The notes under the pieces: model-generated
Databases searched by the model: none
What the model was told of the DNA's origin: nothing
Seen by the model: only the letters and a program-made list of their open reading frames with translations
Program-made: the position numbers and the translations under genes
IMG/VR virus record: IMGVR_UViG_3300022918_000010
Reading direction: 5' to 3' (one strand)
Source of the DNA: a virus
Taxonomy: Duplodnaviria; Heunggongvirae; Uroviricota; Caudoviricetes
Length of the DNA stretch: 64,000 bases
Part shown: piece by piece, positions 4,147 to 63,968 of the stretch
Layout: every line of letters begins with the position of its first letter
Numbering within the stretch: position 1 is the stretch's first letter

Positions 4147-4429
4147 AGAAAGATACGCTATTCATTGTTTTAATGAAGAAGAACATGAATCATTACAAGA
4201 TATACTATTTTCTTTAGGGTATAAATGGCGTGAACTAAATAGATGGAATTGGGATTATAATTATCCTTGTATATTACTACATGATACTGGTCTTGATAGT
4301 AATATATTATATATTGGAAATGAAGATGATGATGATAGTATATATATAACATATAGTGATTTTGAACGTATATATGGACAAAATAAAGAATTAGAACAAA
4401 TAAGAGAATATTTATATAAACCAGATTAA
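4139..4429 (+). CDS. small protein, paralog family B (C-terminus EQIREYLYKPD)
   Basis: C-terminal motif. Confidence 0.55.
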   Translation: MIKERYAIHCFNEEEHESLQDILFSLGYKWRELNRWNWDYNYPCILLHDTGLDSNILYIGNEDDDDSIYITYSDFERIYGQNKELEQIREYLYKPD

Positions 4430-4431
4430 TT

Positions 4432-4728
4432 ATGAAAAATTTATTATTACTACTTATTATAGTAGTCCTAGGAAGCTGTATAAAGCTATCTAAAGAAGAA
4501 AAACAAGAGATTGAGCTAATAGCTAACTCAAAGATTTTAATGTCTAAGGTGACAGCTAATGATGTTAAACTTGATTATTTTGAAAGCAAATTAAAAAGTA
4601 CTGATACTACTGTAACAAGAGAAAGAATAGATTTTTATATAAAAGAATCTAACAATTTAATTGATTCAAATGAACTATTTCTTGATAGTTTAAGAAAAAT
4701 AGTAGTTATACTTAAAGCTAGGCAATAA
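4432..4728 (+). CDS. putative lipoprotein
   Basis: MKNLLLLLIIVVLGSC signal/lipobox. Confidence 0.5.
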   Translation: MKNLLLLLIIVVLGSCIKLSKEEKQEIELIANSKILMSKVTANDVKLDYFESKLKSTDTTVTRERIDFYIKESNNLIDSNELFLDSLRKIVVILKARQ

Positions 4729-7036: not shown

Positions 7037-7642
7037 ATGATAAAGTCAATATCAAAGAAATTAATAGAAGTATCTTTTCCTTCATTTGAAGGTGAGATTA
7101 AAATGTTACCATTTAATTTATCAGATCTTAGTTCTATACCTAAACAGTTTTTAGAGTTAGTAATGAGTATGATTAGCTCCCTTCCTGTAAAAGAAGGTAT
7201 AGCATATCTAACTGTTGATGGTAAAATGATTCCTGCTGGTTCTTCCCATAGAAGAGGTGGAGCACATATAGATGGTAATTATATACCAGAAATGTGTGGA
7301 TGGGGATCTAGTGGAACTGGTGGAAATGGATGGAAAGTAGGAGAAAATGGTAGAGCTTTAGATACTGAAACTCATAAATTATCTTATAATAATCCAGATG
7401 GTGGTATGTTAATAGTATCAGATTATGCTGGTTGTAAAGGATGGAATGGTATGTTCAATGGAGAACCTGGAATAGGTGGTGATTGTAGACATATAGAATT
7501 AGATAAAGGATTTATTCTAGAACCTAATACTGTATATTATGGTTCATCTCAATTTATTCATGAATCACTTCCTTTAGAGAAAGAAGTATATAGAACTATG
7601 GTAAGAATAACTCTTCCATTAGATTATCCAATAATTAACTAA
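7037..7642 (+). CDS. hypothetical Gly/Trp-rich protein
   Basis: GWGSSGTGGNGWKVGENG region; unknown function. Confidence 0.5.
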   Translation: MIKSISKKLIEVSFPSFEGEIKMLPFNLSDLSSIPKQFLELVMSMISSLPVKEGIAYLTVDGKMIPAGSSHRRGGAHIDGNYIPEMCGWGSSGTGGNGWKVGENGRALDTETHKLSYNNPDGGMLIVSDYAGCKGWNGMFNGEPGIGGDCRHIELDKGFILEPNTVYYGSSQFIHESLPLEKEVYRTMVRITLPLDYPIIN

Positions 7643-11446: not shown

Positions 11447-11461
11447 AATTAAACTAAAAAC

Positions 11462-12490
11462 ATGGATCAAAAATATTTTAAATCAGGAAATAATTATTTC
11501 CTACGTGAAGTAAGTAATGTAGAAGACCCTCTACAAGTAGCACTATATGTGTTACAATTCTCTCCTAAAGAAGGATTTTATTTAGAGAAATCAGCAGAAG
11601 ATTTTCATGTAAATCATAAAATATATGGTAAAGATGAAAAAGCATTTACAGAACGTGTAAAGAAAACATTTAATGCTACCAAAGATAATCTTGGTGTATT
11701 ATTAAATGGAGTAAAAGGTACTGGCAAGTCAGTTCAATTAAAATTAATAGCTAATCATCTTGAGTTACCTATTATTATTATTCCACAAGCTTATGAAGGT
11801 GTAGCAGATTATATTAGTAAAATACCTTATTCAGTTACTCTTGTATTTGATGAGTTTGAAAAAATGTATCCTGCTAACTATAATAACAATGCTGATATAC
11901 TTACAGTAATGGAAGGTGTACTTGCAAATCAATATAGAAGAGTATTCTTATTGACAACAAATAGCACTTATATTAATGATAATCTTCTAGAAAGACCAGG
12001 AAGAATTAGATATCATAGGACTTATGAAGATCTTCCTTTAGAGACAATAGAGGAGATTGTAGATGATCTACTTGAATATAAAGATCTTAGAACTGCTACA
12101 ATTGATTTCTTATCGACTCTTAAAACTATTACTATTGATATAGTAAAGAAAATTGTTGAAGAGGTTAATATCCATAATGAAGACCCTAAAATCTTTGGTA
12201 AATATTTTAATATCAAAAAAGATAGTAAAAAATATGATGTATTAATCATTAATGAGAATGGTACTGAAAAAGTATGGTTTGAAGATGTAGCTTTACCTGT
12301 TTTTGATCCTAAAAAGCCAATTAAAGATCTTAGAGTAAATGGTGAATGGGAAGCTAAAATTATTAGTATTCTTTCTCCAACTATGTTAATTGTTGATGAA
12401 CAGCTAAATGAAAATAATGAACCAGAAGTTCATATTAAGATTAAAATTGTAGATAGAGATAATCTACATAAATCATTTAGAGTTTTCTAG
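11462..12490 (+). CDS. AAA-type ATPase
   Basis: Walker A GVKGTGKS, Walker B LVFDEFEKM, sensor-1 LLTTN. Confidence 0.6.
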   Translation: MDQKYFKSGNNYFLREVSNVEDPLQVALYVLQFSPKEGFYLEKSAEDFHVNHKIYGKDEKAFTERVKKTFNATKDNLGVLLNGVKGTGKSVQLKLIANHLELPIIIIPQAYEGVADYISKIPYSVTLVFDEFEKMYPANYNNNADILTVMEGVLANQYRRVFLLTTNSTYINDNLLERPGRIRYHRTYEDLPLETIEEIVDDLLEYKDLRTATIDFLSTLKTITIDIVKKIVEEVNIHNEDPKIFGKYFNIKKDSKKYDVLIINENGTEKVWFEDVALPVFDPKKPIKDLRVNGEWEAKIISILSPTMLIVDEQLNENNEPEVHIKIKIVDRDNLHKSFRVF

Positions 12491-12521
12491 TCTAGTATCT
12501 TCAAAGGATACAATCGTAAGA

Positions 12522-12529
12522 TAGATTTG
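12522..12529 (+). promoter_or_regulatory. TAGATTTG match to Bacteroidota -7 promoter consensus TAnnTTTG
   Basis: exact consensus match in the gap upstream of the first family-C array. Confidence 0.35.
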
Positions 12530-12565
12530 ATGACATGGGAGCAATCCCATGTAAAAACCATAGAT

Positions 12566-12841
12566 ATGAAAACAAAGTATGAAGTAGGAGATATGGCTAT
12601 TATTGTTAGGTATGATAAATATAAAGGAGATAAGTCACAGAATAATATAGGTGAATTGGTTTGTATAACTACAGCTGGAAGCTTGACAAGAGCTCCTCAA
12701 GTTCTTATAGCTGATGATAGAATATTTACACAAGATTCTGTATTTACTTGTGATGTAAATGAACTTTTTCCTATAGAAAAATACATAGAAGTAATAGATA
12801 TGAATTTAGATAAGTTAATAGATAAGTATGGCAAAAGATAA
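12566..12841 (+). CDS. small protein, paralog family C (C-terminus NLDKLIDKYGKR)
   Basis: track ORF 12527 starts with TTG inside the promoter motif; start moved to MKTKYEVGDMAIIV, which fits the family N-terminus. Confidence 0.5.
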   Translation: MKTKYEVGDMAIIVRYDKYKGDKSQNNIGELVCITTAGSLTRAPQVLIADDRIFTQDSVFTCDVNELFPIEKYIEVIDMNLDKLIDKYGKR

Positions 12842-18765: not shown

Positions 18766-19067
18766 GAGATAAGATTAAATTTAATGATTATACTAAATCT
18801 TTAATAAATGCTAGTAATCATGAATATTATAGAAGTGCGATATGGAAATCAGTAGAATATATGATTATTGATATAGTACGTACTCAAAGTTATGGTGCTA
18901 GATGCTTTTATATCAATGGTCTACCCATCGAAGATTTACATACAGGACAACCTATACATGAAGATATTGAACTATATATCAAATATAATATAGAAGAAAT
19001 AATAAACGATTTAAATAACTTAGAACAAAAATTAAATGGAAAATTGGTTAATAATATTAGCAGCTAG
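18753..19067 (+). CDS. small protein, paralog family C
   Basis: MFKVGDKIKF...LNNLEQKLNGK. Confidence 0.6.
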   Translation: MFKVGDKIKFNDYTKSLINASNHEYYRSAIWKSVEYMIIDIVRTQSYGARCFYINGLPIEDLHTGQPIHEDIELYIKYNIEEIINDLNNLEQKLNGKLVNNISS

Positions 19068-19407
19068 TTTATGTTGTGCTGGTATATCATTCACAGTTAC
19101 AATATCTGGAATGTTTGAAGGATTAAGAAATTGGATTTATGATAAAAATAAATTCTTAGGTGAACTTATAACATGTCCATGGTGTTTTGGACATTATGTT
19201 GTATTTGTATTGTTACTTATTTCAGATATACAATATATAATTGTGTCACAGTATGTAGTTTTTAACTTTTTATTTACATCTTTTGTAATAATTGGATTAA
19301 TGGGACTATGGCATAAGATATTACTTGTAGCATATGACCCTGTAATGAAGATTAAAGCTCAAAGAGAAATAAATAGATTAAAGATAGCTAAAGCTAAATC
19401 TGAATAA
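19036..19407 (+). CDS. membrane protein (3-4 TM)
   Basis: hydrophobic segments; CPWCFGH motif. Confidence 0.5.
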   Translation: MENWLIILAASLCCAGISFTVTISGMFEGLRNWIYDKNKFLGELITCPWCFGHYVVFVLLLISDIQYIIVSQYVVFNFLFTSFVIIGLMGLWHKILLVAYDPVMKIKAQREINRLKIAKAKSE

Positions 19408-19410
19408 TAT

Positions 19411-19484
19411 ATAGGAGTCGTATAAATGGTTAGTAAGATTCGCTGAAGAATCTGGTGGTAGTTCGAATCTGCCCTCCTATGCCA
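19411..19484 (+). tRNA. tRNA-like gene with encoded 3' CCA; anticodon uncertain (possibly CUG/Gln)
   Basis: perfect 7-bp acceptor stem ATAGGAG/CTCCTAT, discriminator G then CCA. Canonical T-arm GGTAG-TTCGAAT-CTGCC. D-loop contains GG. Anticodon arm GATTC-GCTGAA-GAATC does not give a standard 7-nt loop in a manual fold. Confidence 0.6.
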
Positions 19485-19498
19485 CTAAATAAAGTGAT

Positions 19499-19894
19499 AT
19501 GACATATTCAAAAGTAACACCAGAGATCACCAGAGAAGTGATCAGAATGAGAGGTCTAGGTAAACAGCTAGAAGTAATAGCTAAAGCTGTTGGAATCTCT
19601 ACAACATCAGTATTCAGAATTGTGAATACAAGGAAAACAATTATAAATGGAGCAAATAATGGACAAATAGTCTCTGCTAAAGAATTAATTAGTAAAAGTA
19701 TATCAAAACCAAATGATTCTACTTTTGTAGAACGTATGCAAATGGCTAAACAAGCTAAGAAAGTCGCACCACTTCCTGTAGAAGAGAATACAATCAATCT
19801 TACAATTGAATTTAATGGTATAAAAATCCATGTAAATAATAAAGTAAGTGATGTATACTTATCACAATCTTCAATACGAGTTATAACTAAGTAA
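19499..19894 (+). CDS. helix-turn-helix DNA-binding protein
   Basis: LEVIAKAVGISTTSVFRIV HTH-like segment; the overlapping minus-strand ORF 19477-19902 is rejected. Confidence 0.5.
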   Translation: MTYSKVTPEITREVIRMRGLGKQLEVIAKAVGISTTSVFRIVNTRKTIINGANNGQIVSAKELISKSISKPNDSTFVERMQMAKQAKKVAPLPVEENTINLTIEFNGIKIHVNNKVSDVYLSQSSIRVITK

Positions 19895-19961: not shown

Positions 19962-19988
19962 GTCTGTTGTACTTTCTATTTTAATATT

Positions 19989-20294
19989 ATGAAGGAAATA
20001 AAAGAAGGAGACTCAATAAAATTTACAAATAAAGCAAAACTAAATTTATCTATTGATGGATATTATATGGATGATGATGATTGTAAAGATGGTTGGAATA
20101 AAATGAAATTCATGATCGTTAAGAAGATCGAACAAAATGGATATGTAATAACTGGTTTTGATAAAAACAATGATCTTATAACAGAAATACAAGATCATGC
20201 ACCTAGAAAAGAAGATTGTGAATTTTATAACAATTATAATATAGATGAAATTATGAGTAATTTAGATAAACTTAAAAACAAATGGAAAAGATAG
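19989..20294 (+). CDS. small protein, paralog family C
   Basis: track ORF 19959 trimmed to MKEIKEGDSIKF; ...NLDKLKNKWKR. Confidence 0.55.
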   Translation: MKEIKEGDSIKFTNKAKLNLSIDGYYMDDDDCKDGWNKMKFMIVKKIEQNGYVITGFDKNNDLITEIQDHAPRKEDCEFYNNYNIDEIMSNLDKLKNKWKR

Positions 20295-20965: not shown

Positions 20966-20967
20966 TT

Positions 20968-21291
20968 ATGATAACTTTTATAGGAGACCATGAAACAGCA
21001 AAATTGTTAGGAGATCAAAAGGTTAAAATATACTTAACTAGAGAAGGAGCACTTCGGTATAGAACTACTAATAATTTTATTTACAATAATTATGAATATG
21101 GTTTAATAGAATATGTTACTAAAGGTGCATTTACTATTCAATGGTATGATAGGTCAAGTAAGAGTATAGGAGGTGAAACTCATTTATATGGATTTGAGCT
21201 TTTATATTATTTATCTGAAAAGCTTAATTCAATCCCTTCTATAGAAAGTATAATTATCAATCTTGAAAAACTAGAAAAGAAATATGTATAA
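20968..21291 (+). CDS. small protein, paralog family C
   Basis: ...NLEKLEKKYV. Confidence 0.55.
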   Translation: MITFIGDHETAKLLGDQKVKIYLTREGALRYRTTNNFIYNNYEYGLIEYVTKGAFTIQWYDRSSKSIGGETHLYGFELLYYLSEKLNSIPSIESIIINLEKLEKKYV

Positions 21292-28989: not shown

Positions 28990-30084
28990 ATGGTAACTAC
29001 ACAAAACAAATCAGCATTGAAAGAGAAATTAGCTAAAATTAATGAGAAAGAAATCATTAAACCAGGAACACCTCCTGCTAGTGCAGCAGTAATTGATGCA
29101 TCAAAATTTGTATATATTGATCCAACTAAAAAAGCTTTAGAATTATCTTTTAATTGCAATGAGAATATCATTCTTTATGGTAAAGGTGGACATGGTAAGT
29201 CAGAACTTGTTGAATGGTTTTTACATAACAAAGGAATTACTCCATTTGTTAAAACTATGGGTGCTGGTACTACTACAGAAAGTCTATTTGGTGGTATGGA
29301 TATTAAAAAATTCAATGATACAGGTATGTTAGAGTACTTAGTTGAAAATTCATTCATGAATCATGAGTATGTGATTTTTGAAGAGTTAATGGATGCACCT
29401 GATTATATCTTAGAGCAATTGAAAGATATCATTACTTCTAAGAAATTTAGAAATGGTAGTCAAGTATTCCATATCAAAACTAAACTTATAATCTGCTGTA
29501 CTAACCGTACTAGGGATGAATTCTCTAAAAACGATTCATTAAAAGCATTGATGGAAAGGTTTCCTTTAGAGCAAAAAGTAGAATGGGATTCATATAATAG
29601 AACTACTTACGGATTCATGTTCAAAACACTATTTGGTAAAAACTATAAAACTCTTGAATATATCTTAGAGAAATTAGCTCAAGCAGATAGTATTGTATCA
29701 CCAAGGACTGCTGTTAAAGCAGCTAAAATTCTTGATGCAAATGGAGGTGATTATAGCTGTTTAGAATTTATTGCAGATTTTGCAGGTAAAAACCAGAAAA
29801 TGGTTCAAACTGAAATTGCTAAATACAAAACAGTTGAGCAAGTTGATGTTATTATTGATAGTGTTAAATCTATGATGACTCAATGTGATGCTCTTAAATT
29901 AGATACACTTGATAATATCAAAAATGTTAAAACATTATTGCGTAGTATTGATAGTGAAACTAAAACATTAAAAGCTAAAAAAGTTGATGATGATTTAATG
30001 AAAACTATTAATGCAAACACAAGTCAATTTGAGAATTATTTAGTAACTAAAGGTAAAGAGATTCAACATGCTACAGAAGGATAA
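28990..30084 (+). CDS. MoxR-like (AAA_5-type) AAA+ ATPase
   Basis: Walker A GKGGHGKS; FEELMDAPDYILEQLKDII resembles the MoxR DEINRA...LLEAM segment; paired with a downstream VWA gene. Confidence 0.6.
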   Translation: MVTTQNKSALKEKLAKINEKEIIKPGTPPASAAVIDASKFVYIDPTKKALELSFNCNENIILYGKGGHGKSELVEWFLHNKGITPFVKTMGAGTTTESLFGGMDIKKFNDTGMLEYLVENSFMNHEYVIFEELMDAPDYILEQLKDIITSKKFRNGSQVFHIKTKLIICCTNRTRDEFSKNDSLKALMERFPLEQKVEWDSYNRTTYGFMFKTLFGKNYKTLEYILEKLAQADSIVSPRTAVKAAKILDANGGDYSCLEFIADFAGKNQKMVQTEIAKYKTVEQVDVIIDSVKSMMTQCDALKLDTLDNIKNVKTLLRSIDSETKTLKAKKVDDDLMKTINANTSQFENYLVTKGKEIQHATEG

Positions 30085-31312
30085 TAAGAAGTTTTATATT
30101 AATGACCATGATTGGTATTGGACACCAAGTGAGTGGAATGTTGAGTGGAGATTAAAAATGAGAAAGTTGGGCATTAATAATGTCCACTTTGCTCAAGAAT
30201 TATCTAGATTTTATTATCATAAGATGATTCAAGAAAAAGAATATGTTGATCCATATTTTGCAGATGAAACTAAACTTAATGCATTTGAGTTAGAACAAGC
30301 TAACCAGTCAAAGGAGTTTTATGCAAAAATGTGGGACAAATATGTTCCTGGAATGTCTCCTTTAGATAAGGCTTTAAATTTATTAGCTTTACTAAAGAAA
30401 CAACATGATGCATCTGGTGGAGTTGGTGGTCAAAGAGGAAGAAATGAGTTAATGGATGTAGATATTGAGAAAGCTTTGGAACATGTCCCTGAGAAAGAGA
30501 TATTTGAATCCTCTACTCTAAATGAAATCTTTGATCGTAAAGAAGGTTTGGATGACTTTGATAAGAAAATCAATCTTATGAATAAGATTGCTATGGTTGA
30601 AAAGTTTGGTAAAACCTTTGATGTAAAGAAAATCATCTCTGAGAAAAGAGTAACTAATTCTCGTATACACAAACAGAAAAGAATGGTTGAGTATGAAGAA
30701 TTAATTAATTCTCCTTTGTATCAAAAAATACTTCCTAATTATCAAGCCAAATTAATCAGTAAAGATCTAGTAATTAATACTCCTGTAGTATATGAAGAAT
30801 CTAAACAAAAGATTATTATTTTGGTAGATTATAGTGGTAGTATGTCAATGATACAGAAACAAGACTGGGTTTTATCTATATTAGCAGATAGACTTAGATA
30901 TTGTGTCAAAGAGGAGTGTGAGATTTTCTTTAGTTTCTTTTTAACTGCACGTGATGTAAAGAACAAAAACTTTAAATTCACACACATTTATAATAGAGAA
31001 ACAGCTCTTAAGTTCTTCAAAGAATTGAGTACTGCTCCTTCTGGTGGTGACACTGAAGTTGGACATGTAATTGAATTAATCAGAGAAGAGATTATGGACA
31101 ATAAACGTCTATTTAATCTTGATGTTGATTTATCTTTTGAGAAACCTGAAATCTTAGTGATTAATGATGGTCAAGATAGTGTTAAAACTGATAAGTTAAC
31201 ATGGAAGACCAATGCAATTACCTTATATGGTAATAATCCTGAATTAGAAGCCTTATGTAAAAAGACAGGTGGAAAATTTATATCTATTGATGGTAAACAA
31301 GATCATTACTAA
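30068..31312 (+). CDS. von Willebrand factor A (VWA) domain protein
   Basis: C-terminal MIDAS motif ILVDYSGSMS; coupled to the ATPase. Confidence 0.6.
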   Translation: MLQKDNKKFYINDHDWYWTPSEWNVEWRLKMRKLGINNVHFAQELSRFYYHKMIQEKEYVDPYFADETKLNAFELEQANQSKEFYAKMWDKYVPGMSPLDKALNLLALLKKQHDASGGVGGQRGRNELMDVDIEKALEHVPEKEIFESSTLNEIFDRKEGLDDFDKKINLMNKIAMVEKFGKTFDVKKIISEKRVTNSRIHKQKRMVEYEELINSPLYQKILPNYQAKLISKDLVINTPVVYEESKQKIIILVDYSGSMSMIQKQDWVLSILADRLRYCVKEECEIFFSFFLTARDVKNKNFKFTHIYNRETALKFFKELSTAPSGGDTEVGHVIELIREEIMDNKRLFNLDVDLSFEKPEILVINDGQDSVKTDKLTWKTNAITLYGNNPELEALCKKTGGKFISIDGKQDHY

Positions 31313-41798: not shown

Positions 41799-42163
41799 TA
41801 GAAAAAGTAAAATTAACCATAACACAATTAATAGAAAATTTAAATTCAGGATTATCTTGGTTAAAAAAAGATGATAATGGAGCTGGTAGTATTCAACAAA
41901 AGTATGAAGCTACTGATATTCAGATACTTACTATACAGAAACATCCAGCATTAAAAGATGTTCAAGTTACTAAATATATATTTGAAATAGTTGATGATAC
42001 TAAGGCTACGGAAGATGTAGAAGAAAAAGTTTGTGATAATCAGGTAGTTATACCAGAACAACCAACTCCTCCTAGTTTAAGAATGGTTAAAGAAGGTGAA
42101 TTATTACAAAAAGGTCCTGGTATATATCTACATTCAGCTGAAGTAGAACAACAATTACCATAA
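41795..42163 (+). CDS. hypothetical protein
   Basis: ORF track. Confidence 0.5.
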   Translation: MIEKVKLTITQLIENLNSGLSWLKKDDNGAGSIQQKYEATDIQILTIQKHPALKDVQVTKYIFEIVDDTKATEDVEEKVCDNQVVIPEQPTPPSLRMVKEGELLQKGPGIYLHSAEVEQQLP

Positions 42164-43254
42164 TGGAACAAACAAAGTCAGATAGATATATAACTATAGA
42201 TACTAATCTTATTAATAAGAAAGAAGTATTCAAAATGCTGGCTTTAGCTCATTCATCTGGATTACCTGTCTTATTGATTGGTAATCCAGGTACTGGGAAA
42301 ACCAGGATAGCATTGGATTATGCTAAAGCATGGATAATGCAGAATATAGATAAGAGTAATAAACAAGAAATGACTCAAGCTTCTAATGACTATATGGATA
42401 AAGTATATATCTTAGAAACTGATGAAGGTACAAAGGCTTCTGAAATCAAAGGTACTCCTGATATAGAAAACATGTTTATTAATAACAAATACTCTTTAAA
42501 TACTCCTATAGCAGATGCAGAAATTATTATTGTTAATGAAATAGATAAAGCCTCTTCTGCTATTAGAAATAGTTTATTAGGTGTTATGAATGAGAAGTTC
42601 ATATTTAATGGTAAAGAGAAAATACCATGTAAATGGAAGCTTTTTATAGGTGCATGCAATGAGATCCCTAAAGAAGAGGAAGGATCACCATTTTGGGATA
42701 GATTTATTCTAAAGAAAGTAGTTAATAGAATATCTTCTTCAGATGTATTAAAATACTATGAAGGTGGAGAAAAGAGTTATAAAGAATATTTTGATATTAA
42801 CATTCCTACTAAAGAAGAGATTGATGATATAGAAGTAAATTCTAAAAAGTTAAATAAGTTTCTTACTGTAAGTTATAATAAATGTTCTGATAGGACTCTT
42901 ACCTTTATTCCAAAGCTTACTAAAATTATCAGTAAAGTATGGGAAGAGAATATAGATAAATCATTAATTAGATTAGCATCTATTATAGTTGGATCTGCTG
43001 CTGCTTCTGAGCTTCATAATAGTTTAATAAGTACTGAAGTAAAAAGTATATTAAATAAAATCGAAGTATTATATACAGTTACTGATCCTGTAGGAATTGA
43101 GGCTCATATGAATGAAATAGAAGCTTTAATTAAAGGTTATACTGCATCTAAAAAGATTGACAGTGATGATCTAATTATAATTGAAGATGCTATTACAGAA
43201 GTAATGAATAAACATCCTAGTAAAGCTCAAAATGATGATGACACACCATTTTAA
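42163..43254 (+). CDS. MoxR-like AAA+ ATPase (second copy)
   Basis: Walker A GNPGTGKT; IIIVNEIDKASSAIRNSLLGVMNEK resembles DEINRA...LLEAMEE. Confidence 0.65.
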   Translation: MEQTKSDRYITIDTNLINKKEVFKMLALAHSSGLPVLLIGNPGTGKTRIALDYAKAWIMQNIDKSNKQEMTQASNDYMDKVYILETDEGTKASEIKGTPDIENMFINNKYSLNTPIADAEIIIVNEIDKASSAIRNSLLGVMNEKFIFNGKEKIPCKWKLFIGACNEIPKEEEGSPFWDRFILKKVVNRISSSDVLKYYEGGEKSYKEYFDINIPTKEEIDDIEVNSKKLNKFLTVSYNKCSDRTLTFIPKLTKIISKVWEENIDKSLIRLASIIVGSAAASELHNSLISTEVKSILNKIEVLYTVTDPVGIEAHMNEIEALIKGYTASKKIDSDDLIIIEDAITEVMNKHPSKAQNDDDTPF

Positions 43255-44608
43255 AAAAGAGTTAGTAAGTCCTTATCTACATGAGATGGATAGTAATGCA
43301 TTAATTAATGCTATTAATGCTTATATCAATGATAATTCTAATAATAAGAAGTTTGTTCAGTTAATAACTAAATATAAGAAGACTGAAATACTTTCTCCAG
43401 ATGATATATTTAATCAAATAAGACAAATCTGGAGATCTTTTCCAAGATCAATTGTCAATGATATATATAATATATATTATAATCATATTGAGAATTTAAA
43501 GTTTGAACAAAGAACAGAACAAAATGGTAGTAAATATAGATTACTTGATAAAGCAAATGATCCTAATATAAAAGTTATTACTAATAATAATAGTATTAGA
43601 TCTATGATCTTTACTAGAGGACTTGTCCAATATTATTTAATTATGTTATCTACTATAGAGCAGTATGATAATGATAGTTTTCATGAGATAATGAAAGATC
43701 TTAAAGATAAAAGTGGATCTGCTGGATTAGAAGAGTTAAATGACTTACTTGAAGAACAAAATAGTTGGAATAAAATTATAAGTAATACTATTGATAAGGA
43801 CTCTAAGGAAAATATTGAAGAACTTTCTAAGATATATACTGAAAATGAGTTACAAGAAATGTGGGAAGAGTTAAAAATAACTACTGTTCCATCAAATGTT
43901 ATTAATAAAATGAATCTTCAAAGTCTTAAATTATTAGGATATGAGCTTAAAAAAGTAACAATGAGTCTTGGTTCTTTACAATCAAGTATTAAAAAGATAC
44001 TTAATAAGTCTATATCTTACTTTTCTTCTAAAGAAGAAGTTATTTATAATAATTTATTAGAAAGTGATAATTTGGATGGTTTAGAAGATTATCATTTACT
44101 TCATCCTAATTTAAAGAAATTATTTATTAATGACATCTTAGTAAAAGATGTAAAAAAAGTAGGTAAGGTAGATCTATATTTAGATGTATCTGGATCTATG
44201 GATGCATGGTCAGGATCTTACAATAAAGAAGGTAAATCAATTACTAAAATACATTTTGCTAAAGCATTCGTATTTAAGATGAAAGAACTAAACCTTATTA
44301 ATGATCTTTATGTTTTTGATACAGTTGTAGATAAGACAGGAAAAAGTATTCATGATATACTTTCTATAGAAAGTGGTGGAGGTACAAATATTAATGAAGT
44401 AGTTAAGCATATATCGAAGATTAATAGAAATGCAATTGTTCTTACTGATGCTGAAGACCATTGCAGTCTATACTCAAAATATACATATTTTATTGGAGTA
44501 AAAGGTGCAAATTTTAGCAGATTTGCTAATGGAGTAAAAAAACAATATGTTGAAAACAAACAAATTATAATATTTGATGGAATTAAAGTAGAAAATGTTG
44601 TTAAATAA
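43232..44608 (+). CDS. VWA domain protein (second copy)
   Basis: MIDAS motif LYLDVSGSMD in the C-terminal third. Confidence 0.6.
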   Translation: MMMTHHFKKELVSPYLHEMDSNALINAINAYINDNSNNKKFVQLITKYKKTEILSPDDIFNQIRQIWRSFPRSIVNDIYNIYYNHIENLKFEQRTEQNGSKYRLLDKANDPNIKVITNNNSIRSMIFTRGLVQYYLIMLSTIEQYDNDSFHEIMKDLKDKSGSAGLEELNDLLEEQNSWNKIISNTIDKDSKENIEELSKIYTENELQEMWEELKITTVPSNVINKMNLQSLKLLGYELKKVTMSLGSLQSSIKKILNKSISYFSSKEEVIYNNLLESDNLDGLEDYHLLHPNLKKLFINDILVKDVKKVGKVDLYLDVSGSMDAWSGSYNKEGKSITKIHFAKAFVFKMKELNLINDLYVFDTVVDKTGKSIHDILSIESGGGTNINEVVKHISKINRNAIVLTDAEDHCSLYSKYTYFIGVKGANFSRFANGVKKQYVENKQIIIFDGIKVENVVK

Positions 44609-44634: not shown

Positions 44635-44923
44635 CTTTAATTTTGTTATCTACATTTATATCTCCAGAATTTGTTGTTGCTACTGGAGTAGGACTGGCAT
44701 TCATAGTTGCTATCAACTCATCCTTTTTATTAGCTCCTTGACTGCTACCGAAGTAATATTGTAATACATTACTCATTGCAGCTACTATAGCAATTATTAC
44801 TTGAGGATCAGCTTTACGTTCATAAAAAGTAATTATAAAGAAATAAGCAAATGAGGATACAATTACTGTTGCTGCTAATATACCTTTAAAGTTATCTGGA
44901 ATCCATTTAAATCCTGTTTCCAT
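44621..44923 (-). CDS. holin-like membrane protein
   Basis: 2 TM plus hydrophilic C-terminus; adjacent to the hydrolase. Confidence 0.45.
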   Translation of the reverse strand: METGFKWIPDNFKGILAATVIVSSFAYFFIITFYERKADPQVIIAIVAAMSNVLQYYFGSSQGANKKDELIATMNASPTPVATTNSGDINVDNKIKEKGE

Positions 44924-45465
44924 TATGATTCATTTGATGATAAAGAACCAGTCTCATTAAGATATATTTTTCTTACACCTGCTGGTTGTGATGTTTTCCA
45001 ATGTGCTCTACGACATCCTTTTAGTCTATCTTTTGCTATAAATGCAAATCCAACAGCATTAGATTGGTTACCACCATATACTAAAAAAGCATTATCATTT
45101 TCTCCAATATAATATCCAACATGTCCACCACCAGGTCTAATAAATACTAAAGTATCTCCAAGAGATTCTTGACCTTTAGGTACAGCATCACCCCATGTTA
45201 ACCATGATAATGCAGAAAGTAGATCATATTTAGGTTTTTCTAACCAACCAGTTCTTTTAGCACATACACCTTTAAATAAACCACACCAAGGTATATCATC
45301 ATCTCCATACCAACCTGATACACCAACTTCTTTGGCCCAACTGGTTATATTAGGATTTGATCCTTTACCTACTTTTTCTAAAGTACCATAATGCTTTAAA
45401 GCTTCTTTTAATTCTAATGGTCCACTTTCTTTAAGTAACCATTGATATTTATTTGGTAGCATCAT
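44923..45465 (-). CDS. phage cell-wall hydrolase, TIGR02594/CHAP-NlpC-P60-like
   Basis: GSNPNITSW...DIPWCGLF...WLTWGDAV...GGGHVGYYIGE...YGGNQSNAV...GCRRA matches the TIGR02594 pattern (Cys/His). Confidence 0.75.
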   Translation of the reverse strand: MMLPNKYQWLLKESGPLELKEALKHYGTLEKVGKGSNPNITSWAKEVGVSGWYGDDDIPWCGLFKGVCAKRTGWLEKPKYDLLSALSWLTWGDAVPKGQESLGDTLVFIRPGGGHVGYYIGENDNAFLVYGGNQSNAVGFAFIAKDRLKGCRRAHWKTSQPAGVRKIYLNETGSLSSNES

Positions 45466-45745
45466 TTTTATCTTTTTGTTCTAATTGATTTAGTTTTTGA
45501 ATTAGAGCCCATTTATCTTTGATGAACTTGAGATATAAATCTCCACCACCAAATATCCAACAGAATATTATTGCAAAACTAAGTACAGATCCTAACCATG
45601 TACGTTGTACTAATGATAATTCTAAGTATCCTTTAGTTATTACTGTAAGTACAGCTATCATGTTTGGTAACAATACAGCAGAAATTGGACGCATTATTTG
45701 TATAAAGCGTAGTAACCAACTTGATTTCTCTTTTTCTGTATTCAT
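45449..45745 (-). CDS. small membrane protein (holin/antiholin-like)
   Basis: 2-3 TM; charged C-terminus. Confidence 0.45.
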   Translation of the reverse strand: MNTEKEKSSWLLRFIQIMRPISAVLLPNMIAVLTVITKGYLELSLVQRTWLGSVLSFAIIFCWIFGGGDLYLKFIKDKWALIQKLNQLEQKDKNDATK

Positions 45746-45747
45746 TA

Positions 45748-46377
45748 TTAACCATCTTGTTTTAATATCTTATATCGGTTACGTTTTTTAAGTCTCAACC
45801 ACTCAAGAAATAGAGTTAAACTAATGAATATGAATCCAAGACCTAATATTAAATATATTGCTAAATCACGTACTGTTATTATTAAGTTAGTCAATCCCTG
45901 TGATATTTTAGTTGCTTCTATATTAGTATTTTCAATTCTATTTACTGCGGATTGTAAAGAATCAATTCTTTTATCTTTAACAATTGATTGTAATAAAGAA
46001 GAATCTCTTTCTGTTGATGCTTTTTGATATTCTAATGTTTCTATATATCTTAAATTATTTATACTGTCTAACCTTTTACTTTGTCTTTGTAAGACGAATG
46101 TTAATGTAGATATATCTTTATAATTTGAGTTTTTTAAATCATCAGTATAAGGTTGTATAATACTAGCTATATATCTCCTAAAGGAAGTATCACGTTGAGC
46201 TTGTTCTTTTTTTGAAAGAGGTTGTCTTTCTACATATTTTATAACTGTATCTTGTTTTAAATGTATTAATGTTGTAGATGGTTTACTTTGTGTAATGCCT
46301 CCTCTTGTAGAAAATGCACAACTTACTACGATACATATAAAAGATACAATTAGTACTTTTTTCATCATTGCTATCAT
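45748..46377 (-). CDS. membrane-anchored coiled-coil protein (N-terminal signal/TM and C-terminal TM)
   Basis: hydrophobic N- and C-termini; could be a spanin-like component. Confidence 0.45.
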   Translation of the reverse strand: MIAMMKKVLIVSFICIVVSCAFSTRGGITQSKPSTTLIHLKQDTVIKYVERQPLSKKEQAQRDTSFRRYIASIIQPYTDDLKNSNYKDISTLTFVLQRQSKRLDSINNLRYIETLEYQKASTERDSSLLQSIVKDKRIDSLQSAVNRIENTNIEATKISQGLTNLIITVRDLAIYLILGLGFIFISLTLFLEWLRLKKRNRYKILKQDG

Positions 46378-46378
46378 A

Positions 46379-46942
46379 TTAGAGAAAAGGGATAAATTTT
46401 TTAAACAAACCTGTCTTTATACCAATCCCCAACAATAATACCAAACCAATGCCAATATATGTAAAGGTTAATTTATTTTTTGCAGATTTTAATTCTAAAT
46501 TTCTTACTTTTAAATTACTTTCTGTAATATTAAGCTGTTTAAGTGCTGTATCTCGTTCTACTTTTAACATAGATTCTAATTTAAGATCTCTAATATTATT
46601 AGTAATTGTTCTAGTAATTAATTTTTCTTTTGTTTTTACTGGATAATCAACTGTTAGAATCCCATTTTTACTAGTTACTGTAGCACCATTACTTGTTTTT
46701 TTAGTAAAATCAGGACATGGGGTATCTACAGTGTCTCTAATAATAGAATCCTTAGTTAAATATGTTATACTATCTTTAGAAATAGTTACAGTATCATTAA
46801 CACAAATCTTTAAATCTTCAATTAAGTACTTTTGTACTGCATTAAATGTTTTAGGATCTGTTTTAATTTTCTTTAAAGTACGATTAACTGAACTACATGA
46901 TGACAATATTAGAAGTAATAGTAGTATTATTGTTGGTTTCAT
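46379..46942 (-). CDS. lipoprotein with C-terminal TM segment
   Basis: MKPTIILLLLLILSSCSS lipobox; C-terminal IGIGLVLLLGIGI. Confidence 0.5.
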   Translation of the reverse strand: MKPTIILLLLLILSSCSSVNRTLKKIKTDPKTFNAVQKYLIEDLKICVNDTVTISKDSITYLTKDSIIRDTVDTPCPDFTKKTSNGATVTSKNGILTVDYPVKTKEKLITRTITNNIRDLKLESMLKVERDTALKQLNITESNLKVRNLELKSAKNKLTFTYIGIGLVLLLGIGIKTGLFKKFIPFL

Positions 46943-52615: not shown

Positions 52616-53074
52616 ATGACTCATTGGAAATATAAAGGAAAAGAAGTTACATGTTTAGAAGATATTGCTGACTATGAAAAGATAGTTGGTTTTGTGTATA
52701 TAATTAAAAGACAGAAGTCTTCAAATGGACCTGAAAAGATTTATATTGGTAAGAAGTCCTTACAACATTCACGTAAAGTACGTATAACAAAGAAGGAGAA
52801 ACTTGAAGCTCCAACTAGAAAAGTATTTAAAAGAGTAGTAAAAGAATCTGATTGGATTAAGTATTGGGGTTCATGCACTCCTTTAAAAGATGATATGAAG
52901 ATTATACCATTAAAATATTTTACTAGAGAAATAATTGAGTTTTGTTATACTAAAAAGTATTTATCTTATTGTGAAATTGAACATCAGTTTAAATATGATG
53001 TTCTTAGAAAAGATACCTATAATGGTAATATATTAAGTAGATACTTTAAAAAAGATATGTTAAATGAGCCGTAG
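52616..53074 (+). CDS. GIY-YIG endonuclease-like protein
   Basis: GFVYIIK...KIYIGKK matches the GIY-x10-YIG spacing. Confidence 0.5.
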   Translation: MTHWKYKGKEVTCLEDIADYEKIVGFVYIIKRQKSSNGPEKIYIGKKSLQHSRKVRITKKEKLEAPTRKVFKRVVKESDWIKYWGSCTPLKDDMKIIPLKYFTREIIEFCYTKKYLSYCEIEHQFKYDVLRKDTYNGNILSRYFKKDMLNEP

Positions 53075-61933: not shown

Positions 61934-61960
61934 TGGGGGAGTTAATCCCCCATTTTTATT
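61934..61960. terminator. bidirectional rho-independent terminator between convergent genes
   Basis: TGGGGGA-GTTAA-TCCCCCA perfect 7-bp stem, flanked by T-runs on both strands. Confidence 0.7.
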
Positions 61961-63968
61961 TAATATAAAATGATTTAACAGTCTCAAATGAATCCCATCT
62001 GTTGAGCATAGCTAATGCTGGAATAACATCTTTAAGTTCTTTCCAAGCTTTTAAATCACCTTTATGAACACCTTTTTCATAATAGTTCTTATCATAAGGA
62101 GGAATAGGTAGTTTCAATGCAGATAATAATACATCACCAAAATCTTTAGCTGTACCTAATACTGCTATAGGAGATTTAGCCAATTGAAATTGTTCTTGTA
62201 AACCAAATATAGGAACCAGAGTAAGTAATTCTTTTGCTTGTCTTGATTGTTGATATTGTAAGAAGTTCATAAATCTTTTAAGTTCTTCATCTTCATCAGG
62301 AACACCTGCACCTACTAAAGCTACTATATTATACATTGCTATTGAAGACATAAGAAATCCAAGTTCAGCCATATTTTTTCTCATATTAGCTATCTGCATA
62401 TCATCCATATTTGCCCAACCAGATTTAATTCTATCATATATAGCACCCTCTGATTGAGCTATATATTTAATTAGACTCCATACAGTAAGATATCTCCCTT
62501 CAAGTTCACCTAAGTTCTGATCCATATATCTAGATTTAAATCTATTTTTATATGAAGGATAAACCCATTTATGAAACTGAGCTGCTAGTGAACCTATCCA
62601 ATGTTCTTGAATAACCATTCTATCACCAAAAGCATAGTTACCATGTATCTTTTTATTTACTTCATATATATAATTGGTTTGTTTATGTCTTTCTTCATCT
62701 AACAACGTATATCCAGGTTTTAATTTAAGTTGATTAGTATTAGGATTAAATTCATATGCATCATATATAGATTCAGTTTCTCCTGTAATAGAGTTAGTTA
62801 GCTGTTTATCCATAAGTATTGCAATACCAGTCTTAGATTGTACATTATACTCACCTCCTTCTTGTATGATATATGCCCAAGATAATGGATCTACTCTACC
62901 TGAATCTTGTTGATTTTTTCTTACAATTCTAAACTTTTCTACTAAAGCTTCATATTTAGATCCATTTTTTTCTTCAGCATATGATCCTGGATTACGTCCT
63001 ACTTTTCCTAACCAACCTGGAACTAATTCTTTATTAAAAGCTATATTAGCTCTAGTAGATGATTTCCATGTATAGTGATGATTACCTGCTGCTTCTACAG
63101 CATTGTTAATCCTACCCATTACATAGTTATTTACACCACCAAATACGTTGAAACCAATACCTTTTAAAGACGTAAGTTGCTGAAGTCGTTGAGCTACCAT
63201 TGCCATTGTAGTCTTATTAAACTCTTCATCAGCATAGAATACCATCTTCATATACTTACGTACTCTACGGGCAGCTAATGATTCCTTATCCTGTTGTAAT
63301 ACAGAACCACCACCTATTTTCTTTAATAGCTTTTGTCCTGTTGAATCTGTTTTAATATAAGTTCTATCTTCAACTACACGTTGGATAGCTTTAATATCAG
63401 CTTCCACATTACTCATAGCTTCAAAGTTCTCAGCCATAGCTCTGAATGCAATTAAGTTGTTTACTAAATCACCTTCAAGTTCACTAGAAGATACTTTACC
63501 CTCTTCTATTCTTAACCAATTAGTTAGATCTTTCTTTTGAGCTAAGTATTCTTTTTGGGATACTTTTTTGGACAGCTTATCAGCATTAAGTTTAGTAATC
63601 TTGTCTTTAATATTTTGTACTGATTTTTCTGATTGTAGTTTACCAACATACATAATTGGCACTGATTCTGCAATTTGTCCTTTTTCATCTACTATACGTT
63701 GATTAGTATAAACATCAGCTGTAAAAAAGTTTCTCATTTTCTTAGATACTGCTTCATAGAAACCTGATCCATTTTTAGTCATTGCTTCTATAAAAGATGA
63801 TCTAATACGACCTACTTTACCATTCATAGATCTTTGTACATCTGGTGGGAGTTTTTCTAAAGTAGTATCCATTTCATTAGTCCAACCTTTATAGAATTCA
63901 GATTGAGCTCTTTCCACTGGAGAACTAGGATTGCTAAGTTTTACATATTTAGGATCTCTTAGATCCAT
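61956..63968 (-). CDS. large hypothetical protein (670 aa), possibly a virion/structural protein
   Basis: long minus-strand ORF starting a new gene block; no motif recognised; internal hydrophobic segment. Confidence 0.55.
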   Translation of the reverse strand: MDLRDPKYVKLSNPSSPVERAQSEFYKGWTNEMDTTLEKLPPDVQRSMNGKVGRIRSSFIEAMTKNGSGFYEAVSKKMRNFFTADVYTNQRIVDEKGQIAESVPIMYVGKLQSEKSVQNIKDKITKLNADKLSKKVSQKEYLAQKKDLTNWLRIEEGKVSSSELEGDLVNNLIAFRAMAENFEAMSNVEADIKAIQRVVEDRTYIKTDSTGQKLLKKIGGGSVLQQDKESLAARRVRKYMKMVFYADEEFNKTTMAMVAQRLQQLTSLKGIGFNVFGGVNNYVMGRINNAVEAAGNHHYTWKSSTRANIAFNKELVPGWLGKVGRNPGSYAEEKNGSKYEALVEKFRIVRKNQQDSGRVDPLSWAYIIQEGGEYNVQSKTGIAILMDKQLTNSITGETESIYDAYEFNPNTNQLKLKPGYTLLDEERHKQTNYIYEVNKKIHGNYAFGDRMVIQEHWIGSLAAQFHKWVYPSYKNRFKSRYMDQNLGELEGRYLTVWSLIKYIAQSEGAIYDRIKSGWANMDDMQIANMRKNMAELGFLMSSIAMYNIVALVGAGVPDEDEELKRFMNFLQYQQSRQAKELLTLVPIFGLQEQFQLAKSPIAVLGTAKDFGDVLLSALKLPIPPYDKNYYEKGVHKGDLKAWKELKDVIPALAMLNRWDSFETVKSFYIK

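Follow-up and report, generated by a model that had tools for sequence, protein, structure and literature searches.

Between two early genes of a large uncultured phage lies a tRNA-derived gene whose anticodon loop has six nucleotides and no U33. The gene spans positions 19411-19484, on the plus strand, of a 64-kb window (the whole stretch of DNA analysed here, part of the 137.8-kb contig ENA ERZ27228460), and its identity as a real gene of tRNA descent with this loop is firmly established. The explanation that we favor, with a confidence that stands at about even, is that the gene has ceased to decode, probably continues to be cut out of the early transcript, and is on a path towards loss.

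The element occupies a 91-nt gap, where it begins 3 nt past the stop codon of an upstream gene and ends 14 nt ahead of the start codon of a downstream gene, both in the same orientation. The upstream gene (19036-19407, plus strand) encodes a membrane protein of 123 aa that contains a CPWCFGHY motif and matches DUF1360 weakly, and the downstream gene (19499-19894, plus strand) encodes a 131-aa protein with a weak match to the resolvase-type HTH_7 domain. The trailer between the element and the downstream start codon (19485-19498, plus strand) becomes 17 nt long if counted from after the discriminator.

Rfam family RF00005 and ARAGORN run with the -ps option both delimit an RNA of 71 nt followed by an encoded CCA. 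The 5' strand of the acceptor stem, ATAGGAG (19411-19417), forms seven of seven Watson-Crick pairs with CTCCTAT (19474-19480), and T8 and C9 (19418-19419) follow directly on its 3' side. The D arm (19420-19436, as placed by the Rfam alignment and the ARAGORN drawing) consists of GTAT, the 9-nt loop AAATGGTTA, which carries A14, G18G19 and A21, and GTAA; its stem has three pairs, among them U13.G22, plus a G10xA25 mismatch, and abuts the anticodon stem so that no separate N26 exists. The anticodon arm (19437-19452) measures 16 nt instead of the usual 17, with the strands GATTC and GAATC enclosing the loop GCTGAA (19442-19447), which holds both a CTG (Gln) and a TGA (Ser) triplet, and its stem can be extended to 6 bp by pairing A19436 with T19453. 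The ARAGORN drawing then gives a 4-nt variable region, TGGT (19453-19456), which is followed by the T arm GGTAG-TTCGAAT-CTGCC (19457-19473), with one U.G pair and G53, T54, T55, C56, A58 and C61 present, and by the 3' acceptor strand, the discriminator G73 (19481) and CCA (19482-19484). The set of elbow and core bases is thus complete: U8, A14, G18G19, A21, G53, T54-T55-C56, A58 and C61. The preliminary description of this DNA had placed the acceptor stem, discriminator, CCA and T arm exactly as they are found here, and the mismatches that it suspected in the D stem are accounted for by G10xA25, beside the U13.G22 pair.

Compared with a canonical tRNA, and with tRNA-Gln(CUG) in particular, the element has the expected 7-bp acceptor stem, U8, A14, G18G19, A21, T arm, G73 and CCA, and its loop includes CUGAA, as in tRNA-Gln(CUG); its weak first base pair, G73 and G10 resemble GlnRS identity elements. 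Furthermore, like the ordinary tRNAs of related phages, it lies between co-oriented early genes. Unlike a canonical tRNA, it combines a 6-nt anticodon loop without U33 with the absence of N26, the G10xA25 mismatch, and a D-stem-to-T-stem spacing of 20 nt, which is 2 nt below the shortest canonical value (22-23 nt). The acceptor stem with discriminator and CCA, the T arm and the D arm are all of canonical form, but the anticodon arm departs from the canonical pattern of a 5-bp stem, a 7-nt loop, U33 and a purine at position 37, and because of this one departure the element is not filed as a canonical tRNA.

Detection depends strongly on how the search is run. ARAGORN at default settings reports no tRNA across the 64-kb window, its -i mode for intron-containing tRNAs returns nothing for the element, and Rfam scans of the whole window, both at gathering thresholds and at E <= 1, leave it undetected. 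In contrast, when Rfam is run locally on 19350-19550, the element aligns to RF00005 over its full length (model positions 1-71) with 31.9 bits, above the gathering score of 29, and with an E-value of 2.9e-5 that applies to the local scan; the whole-window misses are therefore losses to speed filters. This fit requires that three anticodon-loop positions be deleted and that a G31xA39 mismatch be accepted. Relaxed ARAGORN (-ps, with the threshold lowered to 95%) calls 'tRNA-?(Gln|Ser)(tg)', the sole call in 64 kb at that setting, and draws a cloverleaf in which a 5-bp anticodon stem closes the 6-nt loop GCUGAA. A mitochondrial-type reading was discarded, as ARAGORN -mt yields only an implausible antisense call. 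The preliminary description had allowed that tRNA predictors might return nothing or might reveal a 7-nt loop misread in a manual fold: the first is what default ARAGORN gives, but the relaxed and local searches do find the element, and they find it with a 6-nt loop and not a mis-registered one of 7 nt. The covariance-model score, which it had proposed as a check, speaks for a tRNA in the local scan.

The most direct evidence that the loop is authentic comes from a second strain of the phage, L037 (Logan SRR7968057), which stems from a different run and sample and was assembled independently. All 74 nt of the element are identical in this strain, with zero differences throughout 19296-19632, which shows that the 6-nt loop is not an assembly error. 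The flanks are 96-98% identical to the window and include several replaced patches. At ~2% divergence, 0 differences in 74 nt compares with ~1.5 expected, a difference that is uninformative on selection. The replaced stretches at 18785-18983, 19988-20244 and 20966-21282 are highly divergent from L037 or deleted (a 317-nt indel), a comparison that points to mosaic exchange of small early genes among strains.

These data also bear on the suspicion that there is no gene here at all, and that the cloverleaf arose by chance, through misassembly or from an attP-type fragment of a host tRNA. The negative results of default ARAGORN and of the whole-window Rfam scans are as such a suspicion would have them, and the free-energy z-score of the bare 74-mer is -1.6 only. 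However, the local covariance score lies above the gathering threshold in a full-length alignment, all the conserved tRNA bases are in place, an identical copy stands in an independent assembly, and a related contig carries an orthologous tRNA (L003, below). An attP fragment is further contradicted by the completeness of both the 5' and 3' halves, by the lack of an integrase among the window proteins scanned, and by DNA pattern scans of IMG/VR and GTDB genomes (T arm plus acceptor stem, D arm, and D arm plus T loop), which gave 0 matches and so no matching host tRNA. We regard this suspicion as scarcely credible.

Among catalogued phages none is close. INPHARED holds no DNA match to the window in near or distant mode, and the AAA ATPase finds remote phage matches only, so no host or taxon is assigned. 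Single flanking proteins used as IMG/VR queries gave no relatives, metagenomes searched with the ATPase profile yielded loci that were all either distant or short, and a genome-contig scan with the membrane-protein profile gave one irrelevant match. Six related contigs were reached through homologues of the upstream protein together with the nearby AAA ATPase. In L002, L004, L034 and L035 the orthologous junction is only 4-13 nt long and holds no RNA element, while in L003 a 79-nt gap holds a tRNA. The much more distant phage L006 (identical to L043) has a normal tRNA-Trp(CCA) at the orthologous junction, and this is the one case among 29 IMG/VR loci carrying the upstream gene in which a tRNA lies directly downstream of it. 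Ordinary tRNAs are scattered across the early region in distant relatives.

A custom covariance model, for which the window and L003 copies served as input, detected no additional family member in 396 kb of related loci, and its top foreign match is an ordinary tRNA-Gln(UUG) in L005. Two unusual RNAs were seen along the way in L006: a deviant tRNA-like element at 7324-7398, which scores 25.4 bits on the custom model and is uncalled even by relaxed ARAGORN, and a 122-nt element at 1176-1297 that ARAGORN -i reads as a tRNA-Asn(gtt) whose anticodon loop carries a 48-nt insertion.

The tRNA in L003 (Logan SRR28413680_22247, positions 4366-4438) is called by default ARAGORN as a 'tRNA(CUA)' and reaches 41.1 bits with Rfam. 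It has a 7-nt loop, GACUAUU, closed by an anticodon stem in which 3 of 5 positions pair, with A33 in place of U33 and U37 in place of a purine. It also has G14, U73, no CCA, and a G3.U70 pair, the classic AlaRS determinant. Overall identity to the window element is 56%. Measured from the C-terminus of the upstream protein, both elements begin at the same position, both have a trailer of 17 nt from discriminator to ATG (12 of 17 positions identical), and both have the D stem GUAU, a 9-nt D loop of the form (A/G)AAUGG(U/G)UA, no N26 and a 4-nt variable region. The shared junction, start point, trailer, D arm, variable region and absence of N26 indicate common descent. The distance from D stem to T stem in L003 is 21 nt, one more than in the window and again below the canonical range. 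In L003, the last three codons and the TAG stop of the upstream ORF lie inside the 5' part of the tRNA, so that RNase P cleavage would strip that stop from the upstream mRNA.

Comparison of the two copies separates the parts of the molecule that have been kept from those that have not. All 12 pairs of the acceptor and T stems are intact in both, and 7 of them have changed on both sides; one more compensated pair, in the anticodon stem, brings the total to 8 compensatory pairs. Defects concentrate in the anticodon arm in both copies, with one loop base lost in the window. For these two diverged copies, the unbroken and compensated acceptor and T stems argue against long neutral decay. In the membrane protein, L002 and L003 share 78% identity, and each shares 63-68% with the window, which suggests the topology (window, (L002, L003)). 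With L002 apparently the sister of L003, the element would have been present in the ancestor of the three phages and deleted in L002.

One question raised by the preliminary description was whether the anticodon loop has six nucleotides or eight, the latter being the mark of a frameshift suppressor. The free (MFE) fold has a 6-bp anticodon stem and a 6-nt loop, the pairs of the GATTC/GAATC stem have probabilities of 0.94-1.0, and the C-G pair that closes the loop has a probability of 0.999 in the isolated anticodon arm; together with the ARAGORN drawing, these bear out the stem and the GCTGAA loop that had been proposed. Explicit cloverleaf energies are -14.9 to -16.6 kcal/mol for the versions with a 6-nt loop and -10.3 kcal/mol for a 4-bp stem with an 8-nt loop, which is 4.6-6.3 kcal/mol worse. 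Furthermore, the 8-nt register CGCUGAAG would place G, not U, at position 33. The 8-nt frameshift suppressor is thus rejected on energy and on the missing U33, and that part of the preliminary description is not supported.

U33 is the base that makes the U-turn of the anticodon loop, and with six loop nucleotides and no U33 the element cannot present an anticodon in the standard manner. It is nevertheless close to a tRNA that could: a T inserted 5' of CTG gives a default ARAGORN call of tRNA-Gln(ctg), and an A inserted 3' of CTG gives a default call of tRNA-Ser(tga), so that the element is a single indel from a callable tRNA. Because the short variable region excludes Ser, 'Gln(CUG) minus U33' is the simplest description, and the earlier label of a tRNA-Gln(CUG)-like gene is a fair one, given the Gln|Ser call of relaxed ARAGORN. 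Among the Gln codons of the window ORFs, CAG is the minor one (7.0 vs 25.4 per thousand for CAA).

A decoder of an unconventional kind would be either a suppressor of +1 frameshifts, with eight nucleotides in its loop, or a 6-nt-loop reader of two bases that promotes -1 frameshifting. It would account for a loop that is not 7 nt long, a situation for which ARAGORN has the category 'tRNA-?(X|Y)(nn)', and with the acceptor stem, CCA and G73 intact charging is conceivable. Suppressors of the sufD/sufB type have an 8-nt loop, U33 and a 4-base anticodon; the element resembles them in joining a normal body to an anticodon loop of other than 7 nt, but differs in that its stable loop is of 6 nt and the 8-nt alternative is energetically disfavored, U33 being absent from both. 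The L003 orthologue, with a 7-nt loop of other sequence, shows that loop length is not conserved, and close relatives do without the element. The window ORFs are contiguous and dense under code 11, with no frame-broken gene run noticed in the 64 of 138 kb covered. We judge a decoder of this general kind improbable, and the natural two-base, -1 frameshifting version of it even more so.

Suppression of a stop codon, tied to reassignment of TAG or TGA, is suggested by the CUA at the anticodon position of the L003 orthologue. However, the loop of the window element offers no CUA, UCA or UUA in a 7-nt context, and the standard genetic code applies in the window, with no stop-codon recoding visible: TAA, TGA and TAG all serve as stops (75, 22 and 16 times, respectively), and no stop reassignment specifically lengthens ORFs or raises ORF coverage. 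In L003 itself, 3 of 18 ORFs terminate in TAG, and since TAG is an ordinary stop there, its tRNA is no obvious working suppressor in a recoded genome. A suppressor role is, on these grounds, very unlikely. One in-frame arrangement may be recorded separately: at 11453-12841, an AAA-ATPase ORF (to 12490) and the next ORF (12491-12841) are split by a single TAG, the only TAG-joined ORF pair in the window and a possible candidate for read-through.

The explanation favored here, a gene that has ceased to decode and is being lost, most likely starts from an ancestral phage tRNA, either one of the Gln(CUG) type or an amber suppressor, which would have stood at this junction in the common ancestor of the window phage, L002 and L003. 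Searches for promoters and terminators around the element gave no match beyond chance, and as it has neither of its own, it is probably co-transcribed with both flanking genes. The acceptor/T helix, the elbow and the 3' NCCA, set within a run of same-strand genes, are features that would be expected of an RNase P substrate, and since the acceptor stem, the T arm, the elbow of the D loop and the CCA are all intact, the element is presumably still cut by RNase P and trimmed at its 3' end. Its release as a stable tRNA-shaped RNA would divide the mRNA in two, parting the membrane-protein gene from the HTH gene. Decoding would have been lost, leaving a gene that is probably dispensable and on its way out, as in the sister lineage that deleted it.

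Several observations are consistent with such a course of events. The element appears dispensable in the sister and outgroup lineages, it is one indel from a normal call, and small lesions in the core, G10xA25 in the window and G14 in L003, may mark the beginnings of erosion. In being deprived of a feature essential to decoding it resembles a tRNA pseudogene. On the other hand, simple decay would scatter lesions over the molecule, and those observed cluster in the anticodon arm in both lineages. The pattern is compatible with decay only if the window and L003 lineages lost decoding recently and independently of each other. Judged from two diverged copies, the distribution of defects is more readily explained if selection acts on the body of the cloverleaf than if decay is neutral.

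This leads to the main rival of the relic explanation, namely that the element is a non-decoding mimic of a tRNA whose cloverleaf body is maintained by selection for a role independent of the anticodon. Such a role might be that of a 'punctuation' site for RNase P and 3' processing that uncouples the flanking cistrons, of a substrate or decoy that engages a defence nuclease or a host enzyme that binds tRNA, or of an aminoacyl carrier that works without an anticodon. The 8 compensatory pairs, the retention of every acceptor and T pair and the deviant anticodon arm in both copies would all follow from selection of this sort, and the abnormally short D-to-T spacing common to the two suggests that this unusual geometry goes back to their ancestor. 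The encoded CCA and all the bases of tertiary contact are likewise retained in the window copy. The conserved parts are those that RNase P needs, its requirements being known from minihelix substrates. The junction itself may favor structured RNA, as a different conserved hairpin is found there in L038 and L039.

Against a maintained mimic, just two diverged members are known, and the element is gone without trace in the sister L002 and absent from L004, L034 and L035. The loops GCUGAA and GACUAUU differ, which speaks against mimicry of a single anticodon-nuclease target, and neither CCA nor G3.U70 is common to both copies. Signs of erosion in the core (G10xA25 in the window, G14 in L003) count against it too, as does the lack of tRNA-repair, tRNA-modification or other tRNA-related genes among the 40 window proteins scanned. 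With evidence on both sides, we consider a selected mimic a serious rival, though on the doubtful side. Similarly, it is only tentatively suggested that the window and L003 copies form a small phage family in which decoding was abandoned long ago and the gene has since been kept for a job of the acceptor stem, T arm and elbow.

The hairpin of the two ~136-kb IMG/VR phages, at L038:1866-1937 and L039:~1916-1990, is not a tRNA. It follows the membrane-protein homologue, its outer stem measures 14 bp, its minimum free energy is -34.8 kcal/mol and its z-score -4.7, and it matches no Rfam family.

In its pattern of conservation the element also resembles tRNA-like processing elements of eukaryotes and organelles. 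In mascRNA of the MALAT1 transcript, and in the tRNA punctuation of mitochondrial transcripts, cloverleafs embedded in longer transcripts are excised by RNase P and 3' enzymes. The element is like them in that the acceptor and T parts are conserved and the anticodon loop is short or unconserved, and unlike them in being phage-borne, in being represented by two diverged copies, and in that its processing is predicted. A search of the literature on 6-nt anticodon loops in phage tRNAs and on phage tRNA decoys turned up nothing that is a direct precedent. The nearest theme concerns phage tRNAs with substitutions in the anticodon loop, for which it has been proposed that they evade host anticodon nucleases (PMC10264068). 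There, too, the differences are concentrated in the anticodon loop, but those tRNAs keep a 7-nt loop and are still decoders, whereas in the window element loop length has changed and U33 is lost.

The significance of the element differs with the explanation adopted. In either case, phage tRNA genes are usually catalogued only through default predictors, and this one is invisible both to default ARAGORN and to Rfam at genome scale. It would represent a tRNA gene of a phage at a stage when decoding has ceased, yet one old enough to have a diverged orthologue with compensatory changes in its stems. If it is under selection, it would be a counterpart in a bacterial virus of the tRNA-like processing or mimic elements of eukaryotes and organelles, and would bear on the question of why phages scatter tRNA genes among their early genes. 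Should it be no more than a relic, it would offer a clean example of the death of a phage tRNA, in which a lesion of the anticodon loop comes first and clean deletion after, and a warning not to take tRNAs with unusual loop sizes for frameshift suppressors.

The surrounding window covers the early/replication region of the phage genome (~138 kb, 28% GC) and has its genes almost entirely on one strand. It encodes a NUDIX protein, AAA+ and MoxR ATPases, a DnaB-like helicase, a primase, a family-B polymerase, a UDG, an R2K ATP-grasp protein and a SegE-like endonuclease. The last of these, a GIY-YIG homing endonuclease gene at 52616-53074, lies within the replication module, between the primase-like gene and the Metallophos gene. 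The only blocks of minus-strand genes lie at 44923-46942 and 61956-63968; their proteins have no Pfam match, and GC skew falls to ~0 in both of the 4-kb bins that hold these blocks. Finally, a MoxR-type AAA ATPase gene followed by an overlapping gene for a protein of 414-458 aa without a Pfam match occurs twice, at 28990-31312 and 42163-44608, and these two pairs may be duplicated MoxR-partner modules.
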